From Trueperaceae bacterium (GTDB lineage: Bacteria; Deinococcota; Deinococci; Deinococcales; Trueperaceae), in assembly GCA_034520945.1 (NCBI GenBank), contig JAXHNB010000005.1, forward strand, positions 831,529-895,528: DNA of 64,000 nt, read 5' to 3'. Shown here in pieces: positions 27,353 through 39,107 of this stretch (position 1 is its first letter; every line of letters begins with the position of its first letter). Both the position numbers and the translations under genes were made by a program. The notes beneath the pieces were generated by a model. That model was not told the DNA's origin, searched no databases, and saw only the letters and a list, made by a program, of their open reading frames with translations.

Positions 27353-28110
27353 TCATGAGGATTCCTGCTCGGGCCTCCCGAAGTAGCCCGACGCGAGCAA
27401 CCCCGCGAGGCCGATCGCGGCCAACAGCAAAAACCCCGACCCGGCGCCGACGGCCTGCGGCGGTCCGAGGGACAGGCCGACGATGCCGAGCACACCCGCG
27501 ACGGCGCCGGTGATGCGCACGGCCGACACCAGCACGCGTCTTGGCCACACGACCCGCCTCCCAGGCAATCGCACGACTCCAACCATCACCAGGATCGATG
27601 CGAACACCGAGATGTGCTTCACGCCGGCCAGCAACGAGGTTCGTTCCAGCCACGCCTCCCGCATGGCCGCGTACGGCAGGTCGAGGGTCGTGAGGACGCG
27701 CGTCGCTTCCCACACCGCGCTCGCGATCAGCGCCGCGGCGAGCGCCAGCCCTACGGTCGCCAGGGACGACGAGGTGCGCCATGCCGTGACGCCGATCGCG
27801 CCGATCAGCAGGGCGTACCACAGGGCGGCCCCGAGGTGGAGGCGCACGGACGTGCGCGCCCGAGCGGCGGCGCTGGCGTCCGGCGTCGCCGCCGGGTCGC
27901 GAGGGATCATGCAGGACGGGCCGGCGTTCTCCCCGAGGATGCAGGCCACCTCGCCGGGCGTGCGCGCGAACCCCAAGGCGACGGCGACGGTGGGATGGCC
28001 GAGCAGGTCTGGCTCGCCCGGGCCGCTCGTCCCCATCGTCGTGACGTACCCGAACGTAGCCGCCAGCACGAGGCCGAGGACCGACAAAACCAAACCGAGC
28101 CGTCGCGGCC
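27353..28110 (-). CDS. Multi-TM segment, probably the frameshifted C-terminus of the upstream patatin gene
   Basis: Several hydrophobic helices; no convincing start; overlaps the low-quality tail of ORF 27907-31020. Confidence 0.5.
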
Positions 28111-31020
28111 AGGGACCACGCGCCCCCTGCGCCTCGCCTCGCGGGGGGACAGGGCGCTCCACAGCAGCGCGCGAAACATGAGGAAGGCCAGCGCGAAGAG
28201 GACGAGCCCGGCCCCCAACACAGGCCCATGACCCAACGAGGCCAAGGTCCACAGCGGGTTGTCGATCAACAGCAGCACGGCGCCGAACAACAGCAGCAGA
28301 TTGGCCCAGTACGAGGCCAGCAGGTTCGCGAACGTCTTCGGAATGGCGGCCACGAGCAAATTGGCACCCGCGAAGGACACGAACCCGACGAGGTTGCGGA
28401 CCGCGTCGGGCATCCGCGACTCGGTCGAGAGCGTGTCCGTGAGCTTGCCGCTGACGCGCACCAGCCTGGACAGGCTGTCGGTCGTCCGGCGGGGATCCAG
28501 CTGCAGGCCCTCGCGTCGTTCGGTCAGGAACCGCGCCACCTTCGCCTTGGTGGCGCCAACGTCCAGCTCGGCACCGCCGTCCTCGGTGCGCCGTTCGACG
28601 CGCAGCGCCTTGCGCCCTTCCTCGCCGAGGTGGAACTCGTCCTCCACGATGGCGAGGTGGGCCTCGGTGACGAGGTGCTCACGAACCTCGTCGCGCGCCT
28701 CGATCGGCGCGCCATCGAGCATCGTCGCGATCAGCCGTTCGGCGCCGTCCAGGCGTCCCCAGCGGATGTCGTGCGCGCGCCACCCTTCGTCCAGGAATGC
28801 CCCGAAGGACGCGAACCGGGCGCCGTACAGTTTGTCGTCCGGGATCGCCTGGCCGTAGTGGCCCGCATCGACGGGACTGATGCGGTGCACGTCGACGGGA
28901 GCGAACTCGTGGCCGACGTCCGTCGCCTCGAGCAGCGGATACTGCACCATGTCGAAATGCCGGAAGTGCTTCCAGTACCGCAAGAGCAGGGTGCGCACCT
29001 CGCTCGCAAGGGCAGGGGAGACCTCGAGTTCGGTCAGGTCGCGGAGCGCTTCCCCGGACTTGACGGTGCGCTCGCGGTTGTGCTGCGCGATCGTGGCCGC
29101 CACGGCGTCGATCAAGGGGCGATGGCGCGCCAGGAAGGCCTCGGCCGCCTGCCAACCCGCCGCGTCGGTCGGCGCCGCCAGGATGGCGATCAACGCCTCC
29201 CGGAACGAGGCGAATCCGCCGGAGCCGCCGCCCGAATGCACCAGGTCGCGCAGAGCCACGTGAATGTCGGTCGCTTCGCCCGCGCCGCGCCCGGGATCGA
29301 GGGCGAACACGGCGCGCTGCGCCGACGTCTTGGCGAGGCGAAGCAGCGGCTGCACTTCCGACCAGGCGTCGTCCACGCTGCGTGTGTCACCCCGGTCGTA
29401 GGCGCGCACCAGCGCGTCGAGGTGCGTGTTCGTGCCAACCACGTGGCGCAGCTCGTTCACGAGGTCTCGGTCGAACACGAACGCTTGGTCGATCCTGTTC
29501 AGCAGGTAGCGCGCCCTGCGCGCATATGTCGCCAGGTCGAAGCGTTGAAGGAAGTCCCACTCCAGCTCGGCGTCCGGCCGTTCTTCGCTCGTGTTGCGTT
29601 GGAAGTGGGAGTTGCGCCACGCGCTCGCCACCCTCCGGAGTGCGCGGCGGACGTCGTCGTCCGGGGGGACGCGCAGGGCGTCGGCGATCGTGTCGGCCAG
29701 GGCGTCGGTGGTTCTGGCGACGCGCAGCCGGTGGTATGCCCCGTAGGCGTAGCCGTACTGGGCCACCAAGCCCTGCAACGGCGCGCGCTTGGGGTCGATG
29801 GGACCCGCCGTCGCGTCGTTGGGGTCGTCCGGAATCGGCACGTCCTCCAGCACGCCGAATCCGAGGGTCCGGATCCGGTCCAGCAGGCGGTTGCGCTCGA
29901 CGATTCGCTGGATGTCGGCCCGGATGGTCTCGTAGCGCGCCAGCGTGACCACCTTCATGGTGTTCTCCAGCGCGTTGGGCACGTCGTCCAGCGCGACCGG
30001 CGCCTCGGGGTCGATCCGTTCCGGGGCGGGCTCCAGGTAGTACAGCTTGCGCTGGACCCTGACCCCGCTGGGCGCTTCGGAGAGGCGATCGATGGCGTGC
30101 CCGAACGGTTTGTTGTCCAGGTAGCCACCGTCGGCGAAGGCGCGGCGTACCTGCCGGTCGGGGGTGTCTTCGCGCCCGGAGCGGAACAGCTTTGCCCACG
30201 GCGCGCCGGCGTGCCGGCGTCCCGCCAGCCGTTGGGCGCCTCGCACCACGGCCGGTTCGAACGCGGCGGGCAGGCTGCTGGTGGTGCGCGCGGCGAAGGC
30301 CAGCAGCGGGTCGTGCTCGGCGGTGAACTCGTCGTGTTCCAAGCCCCGTTCGGCCAGGCGGAAGGTGAAGGCGTGCTTGTGGTCGTACTCGTGCACGACG
30401 CCGTCGGCAAGCCGGAGCTGAGCCACCTGTCCGGCGAGGTCGGTGCCGGTCACGACCAGGTCCAGGTCCTTGACCAGCGCGCCCGTGCCCTCGGGGCTGC
30501 TGCGGTTCAGCGCGTCCATCGCGTTCAGCAACTCGACGTACATGCGGTCGCTCTGGAACAGCGCCTTGACCGGTTCGCGGTAGGGGTAGCGCGTAGGGCT
30601 GCTGCTGCGGTGGTCGTTGATCAGCTTCTCGAGCGCGCCCTGCTGAAGCCACAACCGCTTCAGCGGTTCCAGGTCGGCGTTGCGGGCCAGCGCCTTGCCC
30701 AACATCACGGCGTTGATGCCGCCGGCGCTGGTGCCGGAGAGGATGTCGACGATGAATCGAACGGGGGGAGGGGAGACGAGGACGTCGTCGTCGATTTGGT
30801 CGAGGGGCGTCCCGCCGAGCACGTGCGCCAGCCTGCGGTAGACCCGGGCCGTGTTGGTGGTGGCCGCCTCGGGGTCAGCCGCGGGGCTGGTCGCGCGCAC
30901 CAGCTGCAACAGCTCCTGGCTGATGCCGTTCATGTAGATCGCCAGGCTGGTGCCGCCGTACATCACGACGGCGAGGCGGATTTCGCGGTGGACGTCGCGG
31001 TCTGCGCCGGTTGCCTGCAT
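27907..31020 (-). CDS. Patatin-like protein (patatin plus DUF3376-like region, C-terminal TMs)
   Basis: EIRLAVVMYGGTSLAIYMNG, GTSAGGIN, DGGYLDNKPF, KLYG..FASFGAFL...WR..D..WGRLDGAERL. Confidence 0.85.
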   Translation of the reverse strand: MQATGADRDVHREIRLAVVMYGGTSLAIYMNGISQELLQLVRATSPAADPEAATTNTARVYRRLAHVLGGTPLDQIDDDVLVSPPPVRFIVDILSGTSAGGINAVMLGKALARNADLEPLKRLWLQQGALEKLINDHRSSSPTRYPYREPVKALFQSDRMYVELLNAMDALNRSSPEGTGALVKDLDLVVTGTDLAGQVAQLRLADGVVHEYDHKHAFTFRLAERGLEHDEFTAEHDPLLAFAARTTSSLPAAFEPAVVRGAQRLAGRRHAGAPWAKLFRSGREDTPDRQVRRAFADGGYLDNKPFGHAIDRLSEAPSGVRVQRKLYYLEPAPERIDPEAPVALDDVPNALENTMKVVTLARYETIRADIQRIVERNRLLDRIRTLGFGVLEDVPIPDDPNDATAGPIDPKRAPLQGLVAQYGYAYGAYHRLRVARTTDALADTIADALRVPPDDDVRRALRRVASAWRNSHFQRNTSEERPDAELEWDFLQRFDLATYARRARYLLNRIDQAFVFDRDLVNELRHVVGTNTHLDALVRAYDRGDTRSVDDAWSEVQPLLRLAKTSAQRAVFALDPGRGAGEATDIHVALRDLVHSGGGSGGFASFREALIAILAAPTDAAGWQAAEAFLARHRPLIDAVAATIAQHNRERTVKSGEALRDLTELEVSPALASEVRTLLLRYWKHFRHFDMVQYPLLEATDVGHEFAPVDVHRISPVDAGHYGQAIPDDKLYGARFASFGAFLDEGWRAHDIRWGRLDGAERLIATMLDGAPIEARDEVREHLVTEAHLAIVEDEFHLGEEGRKALRVERRTEDGGAELDVGATKAKVARFLTERREGLQLDPRRTTDSLSRLVRVSGKLTDTLSTESRMPDAVRNLVGFVSFAGANLLVAAIPKTFANLLASYWANLLLLFGAVLLLIDNPLWTLASLGHGPVLGAGLVLFALAFLMFRALLWSALSPREARRRGRVVPGRDGSVWFCRSSASCWRLRSGTSRRWGRAARASQTCSAIPPSPSPWGSRARPARWPASSGRTPARPA

Positions 31021-31469
31021 CGTGTTGGGCCTCCCATGGTCGGTTCGCTGAAGCGGCTGGGATCGCGTCCACTTCGTACGACGCTCTGAGTCGTCCTGAT
31101 GGGGCGAACCTCAAGCCAAGACAGGCGCACGGAATACTTCGCATGATCATACAAATTGGTTCGGGGGGCACGCCTGCGTTCAAGGGGAACGTCTGGCGGT
31201 GTATGCCGGGACGAGGACGTTTCGATGTGCGTCCGGCTGGGTGCGGGGAGGCCGGACCTCCCCCGGGGTCGTGGACCGGGCCTGGGCGGCTCCGAGAGCG
31301 CGGAGGAAATGAGGTCGCTGAGCTCGAGGTCGTGGACGCGCATCGTCGCCGTCGCCATGTGATCCCGACGCGGGCGGTACCACGAGGTCGATCGATCCCG
31401 CCGGGACGTCTGTACCAAGCCCGCACGCGCGTGTCCACGTACCATCGACCATCAACGTGGAGGTGATGC

Positions 31470-32830: not shown

Positions 32831-32911
32831 GGCGTAGTCGGCCCCTGGCAGGGGGGCTCGAGTCCGCACGACCGTGGCGACGGCCTCGCCCCACCCGCGC
32901 GGCGCGATACC

Positions 32912-33009
32912 GCAGAATGTCGGCACCCCGAAGCAAGATGCCGGCATCTCGCGCCAGCAAGAAGACGAAACGTCGGGAGTTGCGCACAAGCCCCGACGTT
33001 TTGTATGCT
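32912..33009 (+). promoter_or_regulatory. Probable AbiEi operator inverted repeats plus -10 box
   Basis: AAACGTCGGG (32968-32977)/CCCGACGTTT (32992-33001); second imperfect IR at 32914-32949; TATGCT 5 nt before the ATG. Confidence 0.6.
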
Positions 33010-33014
33010 GCGTC

Positions 33015-33617
33015 ATGACCACGAACCGGCGCAACAACGTCGTCGAGCTCATTCGCTCCGCCGGAATCATTCGTCGGGCCGAGTTGGAGGCACTGGGCGT
33101 GCCGCCGTCGTCGCTGTATCGCCTCGTGCGCGAGGGCCGCGTCGAGCGGCTCGATCGTGGGCTCTACGCCGCCGCAGACCATGAACCCAGCGCGGAGCAC
33201 GCCCTCGCCCTGGTCGCCAAGCGCGTGCCGGCAGGGGTCGTGTGCCTCCTCACCGCATTGCGCTTCCACGGACTGACGACCCAAGCGCCGGCTGACGTGT
33301 GGATCGCGCTCCCCGAGAAGGCTCGGCGCCCGAAGCTCGCGTACCCACGCCTCCGCGTCGCCAGGTTTTCTGGTGCGGCCCTGAAGGAGGGCATCGAAAT
33401 GCACGAGATCGAGGGCGTGCACGTCCCTGTCTACTCAGCCGCGAAGACGGTCGCCGACTGCTTCAAGTACCGCAACAAGGTCGGTATCGACGTCGCCGTC
33501 GAGGCGCTGCGCGATTTCGGGACCCGCTTTCGCGGCCGCGCGACCGAACTGGCCCACTACGCCCGCATCTGCCGCGTGACGCGCGTCATGCAGCCGTACC
33601 TGGACGCCATCGCGTGA
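33015..33617 (+). CDS. Type IV TA antitoxin AbiEi
   Basis: wHTH with ERLDRGLY; VVCLLTALRFHGLTTQAP; AKTVADCFKYRNKVG. Confidence 0.9.
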   Translation: MTTNRRNNVVELIRSAGIIRRAELEALGVPPSSLYRLVREGRVERLDRGLYAAADHEPSAEHALALVAKRVPAGVVCLLTALRFHGLTTQAPADVWIALPEKARRPKLAYPRLRVARFSGAALKEGIEMHEIEGVHVPVYSAAKTVADCFKYRNKVGIDVAVEALRDFGTRFRGRATELAHYARICRVTRVMQPYLDAIA

Positions 33618-34546
33618 GCGGCGCTACGAACCTCCCCGCGTCCGTCAGCGCGCGGCTGCTTCACCGCGCCCGGCAGACGGGCGACGACTACCAAGGACTC
33701 CTAACGAGCTACTGTCTGGAGCGCTTTCTGTACCGCGTTGGCGTCTCGCAGGCCCGCGACCGATTCGTGCTCAAGGGCGCGATGCTACTGCGGCTCTGGT
33801 CCGATCGGCCGTACCGCGCCACGCGTGACCTCGACCTGTTGGGGATGCGCGACGCATCTTCGGAGATTCCCGCGGCCCTCCGCGCGATCTGCGAGGCGGA
33901 CGCGGCGCCCGACGCCGTGATCTTCGACGCCGCCGACATCGAGCTCACCGAGATCCGTGCGGAGGACGAGTACGCCGGAGTCCGGGCGACGTTGCCAGCT
34001 CGTTTGGGAACTGCCCGGCTTCGGCTTCAGATCGATATCGGGCGCGCCGACGCCGTGTGGCCGGAGCCCAACCGCCGCGCGTACCCGACCCTGCTCGACT
34101 TTCCCGCCCCCGAGATCCTCGTGTATCCGCGCGAGGCCGTAATCGCCGAGAAGCTCGAGGCGATGGTGGTGCTGGGGGACCGGAACAGCCGTATCAAGGA
34201 CTTCTTTGATCTCGACCATCTCGCCGCGAGCTTCGAGTTCGACCGCTCCATCCTCGCAGAGGCGGTCCGGCGCACGTTCGCGAGGCGTGGCACACCAATT
34301 CCGACCGAAGCGCCTATCGGCCTCACGCCCGCTTATTGGGAGAACCCTTCGCGCCCCGCCCAGGTGCGCGCTTTCGCTCGGCGTGCGGGCATCGAAGCCA
34401 CCGATCGATCCGGTGCGACGCTCCAGACGCGGCTCGCCAGCTTTCTACTGCCCGTGCTGGCGGACGCCCACTCAGGAGAGCGGCGCCCATGGGCGTGGCC
34501 GCCGGGAGGGCCATGGGTGCGTTCAGGTCCCGCTGAGGCTCGATGA
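33614..34546 (+). CDS. Type IV TA toxin AbiEii, nucleotidyltransferase
   Basis: ASVSARL, ERFLYR, FVLKGAMLL, RATRDLDL, AEKLEAM...NSRIKDFFD; GTGA coupling to abiEi. Confidence 0.9.
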   Translation: MSGATNLPASVSARLLHRARQTGDDYQGLLTSYCLERFLYRVGVSQARDRFVLKGAMLLRLWSDRPYRATRDLDLLGMRDASSEIPAALRAICEADAAPDAVIFDAADIELTEIRAEDEYAGVRATLPARLGTARLRLQIDIGRADAVWPEPNRRAYPTLLDFPAPEILVYPREAVIAEKLEAMVVLGDRNSRIKDFFDLDHLAASFEFDRSILAEAVRRTFARRGTPIPTEAPIGLTPAYWENPSRPAQVRAFARRAGIEATDRSGATLQTRLASFLLPVLADAHSGERRPWAWPPGGPWVRSGPAEAR

Positions 34547-34705: not shown

Positions 34706-35210
34706 TCACTCGACGGCGTCGAGATCCTCCAACGACCATGCGACCACGCAGAGCTCTTCGTCCGTAAGGGCGGCCCGGAACGCGTCGGTGAATCCGCCCA
34801 CCGCCACGTACGCGTGGACGGCATCGGATTACTGCGCACGGTGCGCCCAACGCTGGCCGCTGTCGGCCGCGCGCTGCAGCACGGCGAGGTGGTCGTGATG
34901 CAGTCGGGGGCCCGCCACGCGCCCGTGCCACTCCACGGCACCGGTGAGGACGCTTCCCGTTGCGAGGTGCGCGACGAGGTCGATTTCGACCGAGCGTCCG
35001 GCACCATCGCGGCCTTTCCGGTGCGCCTCGAGGGAGCCGAGCTCGAGCGGCCGGTCCAACCGCGCGCGCAGGACGCTGTCGTGCCCCAGGCTCGTGTGCT
35101 GGGCGATCTCGTTGCGCTACGTCTGCCTGGAGGCGACGGCGCGGTGAGCCGCCTTGTATGCAGTGACGTCGCGCAAGCCCTCCTCCTGATCGAGCGCCGT
35201 CTCGACCCGG
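34706..35210 (-). pseudogene. Decayed AAA-ATPase/DUF234-type protein, C-terminal wHTH and nuclease-like parts
   Basis: LDQEEGLRDVTAY...RNEIAQ...LELG..EA joined to GRSVEIDLVA...LTGAVEW; internal stops. Confidence 0.55.
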
Positions 35211-35221
35211 AGGCTCTCTTG

Positions 35222-35590
35222 TCGATCACCGATTTTCGTCACTACCTGACCTCCGATCTTCGGATCCCCGACGATTTGCCCGGTCCCGTACTGCGCCTGG
35301 CCCGCTTCCAAGGTGCGATCGTCGGGTGGGCGACGATCTGGAACCGGATGGCGCCCGTCGACACGAACGTCGCTTGTCGCCGTCGGCCCGCGCGGCGACC
35401 GTGTTCTGGCAACGTGCAGGCGGCGGCCGTGGAGGACTGGACCGTGATCGCCTAGAGCTGCCCCGTCTGCGGCGCCGCGGGTCGGATCGAGGCTTGGCAG
35501 GGTACGCCCTGGGACCGCTTCGACGAGGCGTTCGGCGACGACGGGGACGCTGAGATCGACGATTCGGGCGTTGCGAACCGAACGAACTGA
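35222..35590 (+). pseudogene. Small Cys-rich (zinc-ribbon) protein with nonsense codon
   Basis: ITDFRHYL...CRRRPARRPC...IA*SCPVCG..GRIEAWQGTPWD; TAG at 35453-35455, probably from TGG. Confidence 0.55.
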
Positions 35591-35645
35591 AGAACGGTCC
35601 GCGCCTGACGTGGAGCATGGTGAGGGCAACGGCACCCCACCCCGC

Positions 35646-36109
35646 CTACGTGCGCGCAACGGGTTCGTAGCGGGCCCCTCGCCCCCGGCCCCGTAGCGCC
35701 AGGGGCCCTTCGTCCCGAAGGTCCTTGAGGACGCTTCGAATCAGGTCGCGGCTGATCCCGGGGAGTTCGCGTTCGATCTCGCTGATGGCAAAGGGGGCCA
35801 TGCGGCGTGCGATCGCGGTGCGGACCATCTCGGTGTTGGTGCCGCCGCGCCCTCTACGGACCGCGTCGACCCTCGCTTCGAGCTCGCCGTACGCGGCGAT
35901 CAGAATGCCGAGGAAGTAGTCGAGCCACGGGCGCGCATCGCGCGCGTCCGAGTGCCAACCCGCGCTGCTGCGTTCCAGCGCGTCGTAGTAGCCGTCTCGG
36001 TTTCGTTCGACGATGCGCTCGAGGCTCACGTAACGTCCCACCTCGAAGCCGTGGAGGTAGAGGAGGAGAAGCGTGCGAAGGCGTGCCGTCCGGCCGCTGC
36101 CGTCGGGGA
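35646..36109 (-). pseudogene. Fic-family protein, C-terminal fragment
   Basis: PDGSGRTARL (degenerate HPFxDGNGR), GRYVSLERI, YYDAL..SS.GWH, C-terminal HTH with GRGRGARY. Confidence 0.8.
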
Positions 36110-36110
36110 C

Positions 36111-36304
36111 CTGTACTCGTCCACGTTGACGAAGTGGCGTAAGCACCGCGCGGCCGGCACGCTGGACGGCCTGACCAGCGCGAGGCGCGGTCCCGCTTCC
36201 GGAAGCCATCCAAACCCGCCGCCCCACCCCAAGAGGCGTGGATCAACCGCCCGACACTCCAAACCGCATGACCACCACCGGCAACCACCGATTGACAACT
36301 ACCG
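36111..36304 (+). mobile_element. Internally deleted IS3-like element remnant
   Basis: OrfA-like LYSSTLTKWRK..AGTLDGL...RGP, OrfB C-terminal AWINRP, end-like TTGACAACTACCG; C/A-rich composition. Confidence 0.55.
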
Positions 36305-36428
36305 TCGAATCCTCAAGGAGGAGACCGATAGCCTCCGTGTCTACAGACTGCACGGGTCACGCGACGCGTACCTGGAGACCTACGGCGTGGACACGTTCGT
36401 CGACTTCGAGGACATGCTCATCGTATGA
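36305..36428 (+). pseudogene. cas2: Cas2 C-terminal fragment (type I-C-like)
   Basis: RILKEETDSLRVYRL......ETYG.D..VDFEDMLIV* matches I-C Cas2 tails; lies directly before leader and repeat. Confidence 0.8.
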
Positions 36429-36611
36429 TTCCTGCCGCGAACATTAAGCGATGGTCTTGTCGCCAGGGGGTTCGCGATGCCGAACCTGCCCGTGGCAGGC
36501 GTGAACCATGGAAACCGAATCGAACTGCGATGCTTTCCTGCGGGCGGCGCTCGGCTACGTTCGCGGGAGGACCGGCTTTCGTCCGTCCGTGACGGGGCTA
36601 AAATGGAAGCC
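36429..36611 (+). promoter_or_regulatory. CRISPR leader
   Basis: Between cas2 stop and first repeat; GCGAAC...GGGGGTTCGCG and a second GTTCGCG motif, as in I-C leaders; GCTAAAAT -10-like box near the repeat. Confidence 0.65.
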
Positions 36612-36648
36612 GTCGCAGCCCCGCTTCGGCGGGGCTGAGGATTGAAAC
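36612..36648 (+). CRISPR. Single orphan CRISPR repeat, 37 nt, type I-C-like
   Basis: GTCGCAGCCCCGCTTCGGCGGGGCTGAGGATTGAAAC: 9-bp hairpin and ATTGAAAC end; follows cas2 and leader; no second copy seen. Confidence 0.85.
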
Positions 36649-36775
36649 TTGAATCCTCCCACAGTTAAAGCAGTGGGATTCCTGCATCACCGTGCGTTGC
36701 TCCCAATGCGGGAGTCTGACTTGCACTCAGACAGGCGTTTAACGTCTCGGAAGAACCGGCGGCGACGATGCGTCT
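36649..36775 (-). ncRNA. IS200/IS605 right end / TnpB omega-RNA (reRNA) scaffold, ISDra2-like
   Basis: Minus strand ...GCCGGTTCTTCCGAGACGTTAAACGCC...GTCAGAC...GAATCCCACTGCTTTAACTGTGGGAGGATTCAA; terminal hairpin and TTCAA end. Confidence 0.85.
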
Positions 36776-36857
36776 TAAAGCCTCGGTACGGATATTCAGC
36801 GCGGCGTTCAGGTCACGGTCATGCTGAGCGCCGCAACCACACACCCACCTTGCACGC
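36665..36857 (-). pseudogene. tnpB: TnpB C-terminal fragment (Zn finger half plus RuvC-III)
   Basis: [34 protein letters not shown]. Confidence 0.88.
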
Positions 36858-36943
36858 GTCGCTGGGCTGCATGCCATGGGCATGCCACGGCGAAGCGATC
36901 GGTCCGCTCGCGGGGGTCCGAACCATCGGACTACGCAGCTTTG

Positions 36944-38302
36944 TCATTCCTCGCGGGTAAAATCCTCGTTCGTTCCGTATCCACCCGCCAGATCGTCCGC
37001 GATCCGCCGCCGCTCCGCCCGGCTGCGCTTGCTGTAGCGCCGCGTGGTCTGCAGGTTGGCGTGGCGCAGCAGGTCGGCGGCGGCGTCGATGCCGTGCCGG
37101 CGGGTCACTTCGGTGCCGGCGGTGTGGCGGAGACCGTGCACCTCGCGGCCGGTGTAGCGCACGCCGGCGCGGCCGCACAGGTCGCGCAGGCGAATGCGGG
37201 CGCGGGCCGGGCCGAAGCCCAGCACGCGGGCACCCGGGTCGGACGATTCGGGGCGGATGGCCTGCAACGCGTCCAGCAGGGCGCCGGCGGCGGGCACGTC
37301 GCGAATGCGGCCGCCCTTGCCGACCACGCCGACCAGCAGACCGCGTTCCAAATCGACCTGGCCCCAGGTGAGGTGCGTCGCTTCGGCGTTGCGGAGGCCG
37401 CCGGTGGCGCACAACTGCACGAAGGCGGCGTCGACCGGGCCGGCGGCGCGCAGCAGGCGGCCGACCTCGGCGGCGCTGTAGGCCTCGCGCTTGTCCTCGG
37501 GCGCGGCCGGGTCGGTGGGGGCGGCCAGGTCCCGGAACGGGTCGGCGTCGGTGGCGCCGACGTGGCGGAGGGCGCGGTAGAGCGCCTTGCCGGCCGCCAG
37601 GCGCACCGCGACGGTGGAGGCGGCCAGCGGGCCGCTCAGGTCGCGGCCGCGGACGGTGCGGGGCACGCCGTCGCTTTCCAGGCGGATCAGCCATACCGCG
37701 CCGGCGTCGGGCGAGGGACGTAATAGGTTCTCATCGGGCCAGGCGGCCACCAGGTCGTGCACGCCGCGGCGGTAGGCGGCGCGGGTGCGGTCGCTGAGGC
37801 CGGCGCGCTTCTTGCCGCGGGTGGCCAGCACGTAGTGCGTGACCTCCCACAGGGCCCCCGGGTCGCGTTCGTTCGCGGCGCGGACGGCGCGGATGCGGCG
37901 CTGTTCGGGCGTGAGGCGCGCCCAGCGGACGGCGGTATCGACGGCGTCCTCACTGCGGACCTGCAGGTCGGTGGTGGCGCTGAGCTTCACCTCGCCGCTG
38001 GCGGCGTGCTGCACCAGCGCGTCGATGCCACTGCGGAACAGGGTGTGGGCCCGGACGCGGCTGACGCCGAAGCGCCGCGCGATGGCGGCGAGGGACTCCG
38101 GTTCGGCGCCTGCGCCCAGGGCGCGCTCCAGCGTGTCGCGGCGGCGGCGTTCCAGGCGGGGGCCGAAGGCGCGCAGCAGCGTCAGCGCGGCGGCCAGGCG
38201 CCCAGGGGCGGCCAGCACCTCACGGGCGCTGCAGGCGCTGTGGTCGGGGCGCAGCAGCGTGAGGGCCAGTTCGTGGGCCGAGGTGCCGGCGTCGGAATCC
38301 AT
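36944..38302 (-). CDS. Tyrosine recombinase with N-terminal sigma70-region-4-like HTH
   Basis: Catalytic R (GLRNAE), K (VGKGG), HxxR (HGLRH), H (LRHANL), Y (TTRRY); N-terminal ESLAAIARRFGVSRVRAH. Confidence 0.88.
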   Translation of the reverse strand: MDSDAGTSAHELALTLLRPDHSACSAREVLAAPGRLAAALTLLRAFGPRLERRRRDTLERALGAGAEPESLAAIARRFGVSRVRAHTLFRSGIDALVQHAASGEVKLSATTDLQVRSEDAVDTAVRWARLTPEQRRIRAVRAANERDPGALWEVTHYVLATRGKKRAGLSDRTRAAYRRGVHDLVAAWPDENLLRPSPDAGAVWLIRLESDGVPRTVRGRDLSGPLAASTVAVRLAAGKALYRALRHVGATDADPFRDLAAPTDPAAPEDKREAYSAAEVGRLLRAAGPVDAAFVQLCATGGLRNAEATHLTWGQVDLERGLLVGVVGKGGRIRDVPAAGALLDALQAIRPESSDPGARVLGFGPARARIRLRDLCGRAGVRYTGREVHGLRHTAGTEVTRRHGIDAAADLLRHANLQTTRRYSKRSRAERRRIADDLAGGYGTNEDFTREE

Positions 38303-38310
38303 GGAGGCAT

Positions 38311-38351
38311 GTTAACCCTATAGCGACAAGAGACATTATCGAATCGTTAAC
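38311..38351. other. dif-like tyrosine-recombinase core site (11-6-11) flanked by GTTAAC palindromes
   Basis: TATAGCGACAA-GAGACA-TTATCGAATCG (38319-38346); arms contain inverted CGA(C/T)AA; AT-rich patch 16 nt upstream of the recombinase ATG. Confidence 0.6.
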
Positions 38352-38369
38352 ACCCAACGACGTTCAGCG

Positions 38370-38615
38370 CTACGGGCCACCGACCCAGCCACGGACAGGG
38401 TCGTAGCGCAACGGCTCGCCAAGCTCGTCGGGATCGAACTGCCCGTGCGCATCCGCTTCGAGCGGAGGTGCCAGCGAGGCGTCGTGCCACGACCGCAGGT
38501 CATCAGACGCCGACAAAAGCTCTTCACGCTCGCCGCCCATGGCCCTCGCCAAGGTACGGACCCAGATGCCCAGGGCCCGAAGATACGCTCGGAGCCACCC
38601 AACGACACGCGTCAT
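38370..38615 (-). CDS. Small hypothetical protein (81 aa), probably leaderless
   Basis: TACGAT 6 nt before ATG; MTRVVGWLRAYLRAL... amphipathic N-terminus. Confidence 0.45.
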   Translation of the reverse strand: MTRVVGWLRAYLRALGIWVRTLARAMGGEREELLSASDDLRSWHDASLAPPLEADAHGQFDPDELGEPLRYDPVRGWVGGP

Positions 38616-38747
38616 GGGTGCATCGTATCGCTTGGGAGCATGCCGCGCCACGTTCCTCCCCGCGCGTCCGAGCGCCGCCCGCGGCGTGAGGGATGCCATT
38701 GACGCCCGCGTGCGGCCGCGCGTACGCTCCAGTCCGAGGAGGCACAT

Positions 38748-39107
38748 GTGAAGCGTCTTGCCTTGAGTTCGTTGCTGGTGGCGGGGGTCCTGGCGGCCTG
38801 TGCGCCGCAGGCCACGGTCATGAACAACGTCGTCCCGAGCCTGATCTCGGTGCAACTGCCGCAGGACGACGGCGAACCGATCCGCCTCGACGGCCGCTAC
38901 TTCGGGGACGGGCAGGACGGCCAGGCCGACGACAGCTACGTCGTGATCGGCGCACGCGGCGACTGCACCGGCGGCGTCGAGCTCCAGGCCGACACCTGGA
39001 GCGCCAACCGCATCACCTTCCGCGATCCCGGGGGCGTCGGCTCGGGTTTCGTGTGCGTGGTGGCGAATGGTGTCACCAGCAACGGCTTGCCGCTCGACCT
39101 GAACTGA
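38748..39107 (+). CDS. Small lipoprotein with IPT/Ig-like fold
   Basis: GGAGG RBS, lipobox LAAC, DGRYFG...WS..RITF..P. Confidence 0.75.
   Translation: MKRLALSSLLVAGVLAACAPQATVMNNVVPSLISVQLPQDDGEPIRLDGRYFGDGQDGQADDSYVVIGARGDCTGGVELQADTWSANRITFRDPGGVGSGFVCVVANGVTSNGLPLDLN

Follow-up and report, generated by a model that had tools for sequence, protein, structure and literature searches.

A truncated ISDra2-like tnpB whose omega-RNA scaffold ends flush with a solitary type I-C CRISPR repeat in a Trueperaceae genome

The window, the whole 64,000-nucleotide stretch of DNA analysed here, is G000:C5:831529-895528 of an assembly of 3.47 Mb in 10 contigs (71% G+C, 97.4% complete, 5.1% contamination). 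Within it the remains of two systems meet. On the plus strand, the 3' stump of a cas2 gene is followed by a CRISPR leader and one repeat; on the minus strand, and directly beside that repeat, lie the right end, the RNA scaffold and the 3' stump of a tnpB gene of an IS200/IS605 element, with an integrase gene beyond (Table 1). Across the junction the plus strand reads ...GGGGCTGAGGATTGAAAC/TTGAATCCTCCCACAG..., where the slash marks the joint between 36648 and 36649. The first of these positions is the last base of the repeat, and the second is, on the minus strand, the final base of the IS200/IS605 right end.

Table 1. Features on either side of the junction (window positions).
Feature	Position	Strand	Details
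cas2 3' stump	36306..36428	+	last 40 codons and stop; first 56 codons gone
CRISPR leader	36429..36611	+	183 nt, from cas2 stop to repeat
Single type I-C CRISPR repeat, GTCGCAG...GGATTGAAAC	36612..36648	+	37 nt; family of the arrays in G310 and G324
Would-be omega-RNA guide, 20 nt, reverse complement of the 3' part of the repeat (GTTTCAATCCTCAGCCCCGC)	36629..36648	-	read from the sequence
IS200/IS605 right end with intact omega-RNA (reRNA) scaffold, terminal sequence ...GUGGGAGGAUUCAA	36649..36786	-	covariance model R1
tnpB 3' fragment, ~60 codons and stop (36665-36667)	36665..36848	-	PF07282; C-terminus of the G056 TnpB
Junction segment in place of the remaining tnpB	36849..36943	.	common to C10 and an X3 contig; left neighbours differ
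Tyrosine recombinase (integrase), 452 aa	36944..38302	-	PF00589, E 2e-13, weak PF02899; also in C10

Other features of the neighborhood were recorded in passing. About 2 kb upstream of the CRISPR remnant, at 32838-34543 on the plus strand, is a gene pair for an AbiEi antitoxin and an AbiEii nucleotidyltransferase toxin (Pfam E 1e-14 and 5e-45), and the remnant of a Fic-like ORF (35646-36227, minus strand), with no Pfam match, lies upstream of the cas2 stump; the proximity of this pair and the Fic-like remnant to the CRISPR remnant suggests a decayed defence island. Further upstream is a 1067-aa open frame (27910-31110, minus strand) encoding a patatin-like phospholipase with DUF3376. No tRNA genes were found between 30000 and 45000.

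The cas2 stump was invisible to Pfam and NCBIfam profiles; it was recognized by tblastn with the 96-aa Cas2 of the genome G324 (L036:1014-1301), residues 57-96 of which correspond to window positions 36306-36425 with 53% identity (E 1e-10). The leader occupies the same position as in the intact type I-C locus of G324, where it is of similar length (~196 nt), and a single weak sigma-70-like site at 36400-36429 overlaps the end of cas2 and the start of the leader. The repeat itself, in full GTCGCAGCCCCGCTTCGGCGGGGCTGAGGATTGAAAC, with ATTGAAAC as the 3' part that follows GTCGCAG..., occurs once in the window and was matched by 0 of 100 shuffles. Throughout the genome it is a single copy even when up to 8 substitutions are allowed. 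It aligned with positions 1-37 of the 37 positions of the Rfam family CRISPR-DR9 at 29.7 bits, which is under the gathering score of 45.

Comparison with related genomes identified the family to which the repeat belongs. It was present at no more than 3 mismatches in 3 of 364 genomes of the phylum, this one included; G310 carries 73 copies (1-2 mismatches) and G324 carries 60 (3 mismatches), both of the same family and with a period of 71-72. Because the same 37-mer iterates in these two arrays, the limits 36612-36648 are the natural ends of the unit. The G324 array is preceded by cas3-cas5c-cas8c-cas7/csd2-cas4-cas1c-cas2-leader, which is a type I-C locus, and the window retains the cas2-leader-repeat order of that locus in the form of a stump. 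An array in the sense of at least two repeats separated by spacers is present neither in the window nor elsewhere in the genome, where only the one repeat was found. Judged by its array family, the adjacent remains of a cas gene and the leader, the repeat is a genuine type I-C CRISPR repeat. The 73 repeats of G310 are arranged in two blocks ~5.5 kb apart (G310:C27:166491-168465 and 174034-177228), with something lying between or inserted. An orthologous leader was absent from 127 other genomes of the same family, in which only repeats were matched, and no empty site is therefore recoverable. A 16-nt likeness (13/16) between the end of the window's leader and the last G310 spacer was judged to be chance.

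The other side of the junction has the anatomy of an IS200/IS605 right end. A subterminal hairpin, CCCAC..GTGGG, is followed by AGGATTCAA, which terminates at 36649. A DNA search with the 212-nt tail over the same 364 genomes identified relatives in 24, again including this one, and 13 right ends were extracted (12 loci from the phylum search and one further copy in G210). All 13 finish in ...GGG(A/T)G..TCAA and have unrelated flanks thereafter, and copies within a single genome (L051 and L052 in G210; L012 and L033 in G211) diverge directly after TCAA. The terminal-hairpin pattern was found at 72 more loci in several phyla (74 matches), with TCAA no more than 8 nt away in 70 of the 74 and unrelated flanks. 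Two right-end-like hairpins of the form GGAAACCCACTGCTTTAGC.GTGGGAGGAA, L018 in G140 and L030 in G189, have neither TCAA nor a tnpB-like upstream region and may be solo relics or an unrelated motif.

Upstream of this terminus, and overlapping both the 3' end of tnpB and the right end, lies a segment with the conserved structure expected of an reRNA. Covariance model R1, for which 11 relatives but not the window were used, matched 36649-36786 on the minus strand over all of its positions (1-139 of 139) at 76.7 bits (E 4e-22). RNAalifold, applied to an alignment of 12 sequences, found compensatory changes in 23 of 37 predicted pairs. Together with the ISDra2-like TnpB of the closest relative (below), these results make the scaffold a structured RNA that is conserved in the ISDra2-like family. 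Rfam, run in E-value mode over 35000-39000, returned no omega-RNA family, just the sub-gathering match to the repeat and chance matches, and a literature search on the 3' motif of the scaffold retrieved unrelated papers only. On the minus strand between 36200 and 37100 no promoter-like or terminator-like site was found, and among the sequencing runs listed as containing this stretch none was of RNA.

In ISDra2 the guide of the reRNA is the ~16 nt that flank the right end, and IS200/IS605 elements enter their target on the 3' side of a short motif, which doubles as the TnpB TAM, as passages of the ISDra2 study describe (Karvelis 2021, PMC8612924). If the scaffold in the window were transcribed, the guide of its omega-RNA would be the reverse complement of the CRISPR repeat. 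In the predicted minimum free energy fold, nucleotides 6-12 of that guide pair with the last bases of the scaffold in a 7-bp hairpin (z = -1.1). From the orientation of the leader and its one weak sigma-70-like site, transcription of the leader antisense to the omega-RNA is plausible.

What is left of tnpB encodes the second zinc-finger CxxC, the RuvC-III motif and the C-terminal tail. The minus-strand ORF extends over 36665-36883, and from ~36846 down it is TnpB-like (PF07282 positions 38-60 of 60, E 5e-7); over 61 aa it aligns at 62% identity with the C-terminal end of a 427-aa TnpB from G056. This closest full-length relative matches the structures of ISDra2 TnpB (8h1j, 8bf8) with E values of ~1e-145, and the description "ISDra2-like" is therefore justified. 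Compared with a complete gene of ~400 aa with RuvC I-III, only ~60 C-terminal codons remain. Neither a left end with a preceding target motif or TAM nor any other piece of the element was found in the genome. Among relatives, TTGAT precedes the left-end hairpin in G056 (a single copy, from which the TAM is inferred) and TTAT precedes it in the G210 and G211 copies; in G102 and G070 the homology begins within tnpB, leaving no left end from which a TAM could be read.

The juxtaposition of repeat and right end is base-precise, since the relatives of the right end diverge after TCAA and the covariance match stops exactly at 36649. The initial annotation had the repeat running to 36648 and the right end starting at 36649 with a gap of 0, and both limits agree with the unit ends in the arrays and among the right-end relatives. 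Its description of the anatomy also stands: a truncated ISDra2-like tnpB, an intact scaffold ending in GGGAGGATTCAA, the flush repeat as a would-be guide, and the leader antisense to the scaffold. Logan contigs from two runs, produced by an assembler different from that of the genome, span 36200-37151 and 36200-37022 (952 and 823 bases) with 0 differences and at uniform depths of 12.8 and 9.6. Both runs probably derive from the source sample, making the contigs independent of the assembly but not of the sample. This bridging without a single difference indicates that the junction is not a binning or assembly chimera.

The partners that an active element or an active array would need are missing. 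Genome-wide profile searches gave one match to the TnpB domain (PF07282), which is the stump itself, and 0 matches to OrfB_IS605 (PF01385); the Y1 (HUH) TnpA profile PF01797 also gave 0, indicating no transposase in cis or in trans. Pfam searches for Cas1 and Cas2 gave 0 and 0. Model R1 found no second copy of the scaffold in the genome, and a blastn search of 72,556 plasmids with the scaffold as query was negative. That no cognate TnpB turned up genome-wide is an outcome that the initial annotation had itself regarded as telling against its functional readings. The missing TnpB is not proof of absence, because the assembly is in 10 contigs with ~5% contamination and IS copies often go unassembled.

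The junction was also not seen to recur. The motif GTGGGAG-N(1-4)-TCAA-GTTTCAATCC had 0 matches in 185,579 species, each represented by one genome. In metagenome contigs it had 4 matches, all of them chance and none at an IS end; in one case the motif fell at the end of a normal spacer of an unrelated array, and the other three were unrelated sequence. None of 70 other right ends abuts such a repeat. In L080 (Candidatus Sororendozoicomonas aggregata), a right end with the same hairpin lies 111 nt upstream of an unrelated array, in which the word GTTCACTGCCGCACAGGC is repeated at 60-nt spacing, and is not flush with it. Neither the genome nor the metagenome collections thus held any such junction beyond chance, which is again what the initial annotation had said would weigh against it. 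A published fusion of a right end to a CRISPR repeat was not found in the literature searched.

A second version of the region is present in the same assembly. Window positions 38376-64000 align with C10:2862-28492 at 99.1% identity over 25.6 kb, positions 36853-38365, the integrase region, align with C10:144-1654 at 95.7%, and a part of the leader (36473-36576) aligns with C10:10-115 at 89.6%. C10 is a haplotype free of the junction: the end of the leader, the repeat and the IS piece are absent from it, and ~40 other bases stand in their place. A Logan contig of the C10 form was found in the same sample at lower depth (4.5 versus 9.6). One region is thus represented in two versions, by the end of C5 and by the start of C10, C10 having an extra segment of 1.2 kb (1655-2861) with no Pfam match. 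The bin therefore either combines two strains or contains a large duplication, with hisS, aspS and other housekeeping genes counted twice. Two candidates for further repeats were tried and rejected. A degenerate terminal repeat at C10:136-161 resembles repeat positions 1-26 (20/26), and 98 of 2000 shuffles did equally well, which makes it a weak suggestion only; another in the window at 36849-36960 is at chance level, its score being reached by 644 of 2000 shuffles.

A run of another study, X3, contains a copy of the element with 5 differences in 179 nt (36670-36848; 97% identical). At 36848 the window's homology to it ends, and the X3 copy continues beyond, translating as TAVSDLAVR(E), which parallels the AVKDLSVRH that precedes WVC in the G056 TnpB. 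Going by this translation, X3 holds a longer copy of tnpB. We considered it as an intact gene and do not claim that it is one, the TAVSDLAVR frame lying one base off the WVC frame (by the reported coordinates and hand translation). Another X3 contig crosses the right end and then departs from the repeat sequence, and X3 also has ordinary joints of repeat, 35-nt spacer and repeat. In X3, the insertion sequence and the array exist separately.

The segment that replaces the rest of tnpB has three different left neighbors: the tnpB stump in the window, the remains of the leader in C10, and in X3 (record 16, whose match begins at 36851) 467 unlike bases. On the strength of these comparisons, ~36849-36853 is a rearrangement boundary beside the tyrosine-recombinase gene, which has the orientation of the tnpB stump and immediately precedes it. 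For the integrase segment as a whole (36849-38365), all three left neighbors start within ~5 nt of 36851, and the segment is less conserved between the haplotypes than its surroundings. Both features suggest a small mobile or recombination-prone module.

We consider it probable, at roughly 85%, that the locus is a scar, left by an ISDra2-like insertion in a type I-C array after most of both had been deleted. On this view an IS200/IS605 element of the ISDra2-like kind, with its tnpB and omega-RNA, would have transposed into the array so that its right end came to lie precisely where the leader-proximal repeat meets the first spacer. The target motif would then have been the first bases of spacer 1, beside the left end, and would have been TTGAT-like if the element resembled that of G056. 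By position alone the repeat would have become the flank of the right end. Later deletions or rearrangements may have taken away five-sixths of tnpB from its 5' side, the left end and the rest of the array, along with all of the cas genes except the cas2 stump, itself presumably shortened by its first 56 codons in the same way. The order that remained would be the one now seen, from cas2 stump, leader and one repeat to right end with scaffold, tnpB stump and integrase gene. Since the left end and spacer 1 are lost, we infer, rather than observe, insertion by TnpA, and the same holds for the order of events and for a target motif in spacer 1. The complete preservation of the scaffold and its near identity to the X3 copy argue that the insertion was recent and that a past active phase is possible. 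A transcript of the scaffold, for example by read-through from the integrase gene, would carry the reverse complement of the repeat as its guide; without TnpB in the cell this scaffold-plus-repeat RNA would be inert. Given insertion into an array with a period of ~72, landing exactly on the boundary is by our own rough estimate a 1-in-72 event, which is unusual at one locus but unremarkable across a scan of very many windows. At this locus the exact strike on a repeat boundary (~1 in 72) is an unexplained coincidence, and counts against ordinary insertion.

Several other explanations were weighed against the scar. The initial annotation had proposed that the omega-RNA, with the repeat as its guide, directed TnpB, formerly the element's own or else one supplied in trans, to TAM-adjacent repeats, which could explain the loss of the array. 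Such a guide would match every repeat of the family, the scaffold is intact, the array did collapse to one repeat, and a longer copy of the element coexists with arrays of the same repeat in X3. Against this, the genome holds no TnpB for action in trans, cutting at repeats leaves the loss of the whole cas operon unexplained, and the junction is unique. A 5-nt TAM (TTGAT, taken from the closest relative) would be expected at ~1 in 1000 spacer ends, and the TTGAT complement begins none of the 39 spacers that were sampled from G310 and G324; the predicted 7-bp hairpin would in addition sequester part of the guide. With no TnpB, the cas loss unexplained and no TAM-bearing spacer among the 39, this account of the loss of the array did not hold up, and we regard it as very improbable. 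A version set in the past, in which the omega-RNA of the whole element once aimed TnpB at TAM-preceded repeats in the host's array or in arrays of incoming DNA and thereby triggered repeat-to-repeat deletions, is in our view very improbable. If true, it would mean that a transposon's RNA-guided nuclease had been aimed, by an accident of landing site, at the adaptive immune memory of its host. The joint might alternatively have been made by the CRISPR integrase rather than by TnpA, the 3'-OH of the right end at TCAA having been joined to the minus strand at the repeat/spacer boundary. Spacer integration by Cas1-Cas2 proceeds, on the minus strand, by attack of a DNA 3'-OH precisely at that boundary. 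It is at this single phosphodiester of the minus strand that the joint is found, and the IS strand terminates at its natural 3' end. We know of no precedent for integration of kilobase DNA by a CRISPR integrase, however. On excision the element forms a closed single-stranded circle, a duplicated repeat beyond the element is not seen (that side being lost), and ordinary transposition with a target motif in spacer 1 needs only one modest coincidence. We hold an integrase-made joint to be very improbable.

An artefact of assembly, in which a fragment of an array and a fragment of an insertion sequence from a mixed-strain metagenome bin were joined in a chimeric contig, would fit the bin's contamination of 5.1% and the mixture of two strains implied by the duplication of the C5 end at the start of C10. 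It is difficult to reconcile with the contigs of two runs, both probably from the source sample, that cross the junction with 0 differences, and its likelihood is very small. The remaining explanation, also raised by the initial annotation, is that the locus captures an early, type V-like step that puts an array downstream of a TnpB scaffold. Of two published routes to Cas12, one starts from a tnpB transposon inserting near an array already in place, according to passages of Altae-Tran 2023 (PMC10691335), and array DNA does directly follow the scaffold here. The nuclease gene is destroyed, however, one repeat is left, and that repeat is of type I-C and is read antisense, with the leader on its far side. 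New spacers would enter at the leader/repeat side, at least 37 nt beyond the scaffold, and would therefore not change the guide; there is also no adaptation module (no Cas1, and a stump only of cas2), and the arrangement is conserved nowhere. The same passages of PMC10691335 set aside as incidental those TnpBs that lie beside arrays of other CRISPR types, and insertion near a pre-existing array is kept as a mere possibility in the portions of PMC10691335 and PMC13565253 that treat it. The geometry, the lost nuclease and the missing adaptation genes together speak against capture with spacer acquisition downstream of the scaffold, and we think it highly unlikely.

On its own the locus carries little weight; its modest use is as an illustration. 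Because the flank defines the guide, an IS200/IS605 element that inserts flush with a host sequence present in many copies acquires, without further change, a guide RNA with many targets. Enrichment of such junctions at CRISPR repeat ends, if it were found, would bear on conflict between transposons and CRISPR and on the type V route that starts from an array already in place, neither of which is demonstrated by one dead locus.

Comparison with known systems places each part of the locus. Insertions of IS elements in CRISPR arrays or cas loci are rare, one example being ISC1359 in a Sulfolobus spacer, as passages of PMC4390879 describe. In the cases treated there, as here, the array is interrupted and the locus inactivated or rearranged; in those cases the insertion is into a spacer, whereas here it is flush with the end of a repeat, and the element draws its RNA guide from that flank. 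With the origins of type V systems and TranC (PMC10691335; Jin 2025 Cell, via PMC13565253; LaTranC, 9jfo), as far as the relevant passages of these papers go, the locus shares a TnpB-type scaffold beside repeat DNA. In contrast to them it has no nuclease, one antisense type I-C repeat, no conservation, and no split of the scaffold into tracrRNA and crRNA; an intact nuclease with a conserved, sense-orientation array downstream was not found. The type I-C locus of G324 resembles the window in repeat family (3 mismatches), in the order cas2-leader-repeat and in leader length, but the window has 40 cas2 codons, the leader and one repeat only. The closest likeness on the transposon side is to ISDra2 of Deinococcus radiodurans, in which, according to passages of Karvelis 2021 (PMC8612924) and the structures 8h1j and 8bf8/8exa, the TnpB C-terminus carries the same zinc-finger CxxC and RuvC-III motif. 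A structured RNA over the 3' end of tnpB and the right end, a TCAA terminus and a flank-defined guide are likewise shared. Unlike ISDra2, the element in the window consists of its last ~200 bp only, with no left end, tnpA or complete tnpB in the genome, and its flank is a CRISPR repeat rather than ordinary DNA. The locus looks like a one-off relic of known kinds, a dead type I-C locus with an ISDra2-like insertion, and not like a working system. As such it illustrates a further path of decay for CRISPR loci, and adds a relic to the ISDra2-like family in the Deinococcota.
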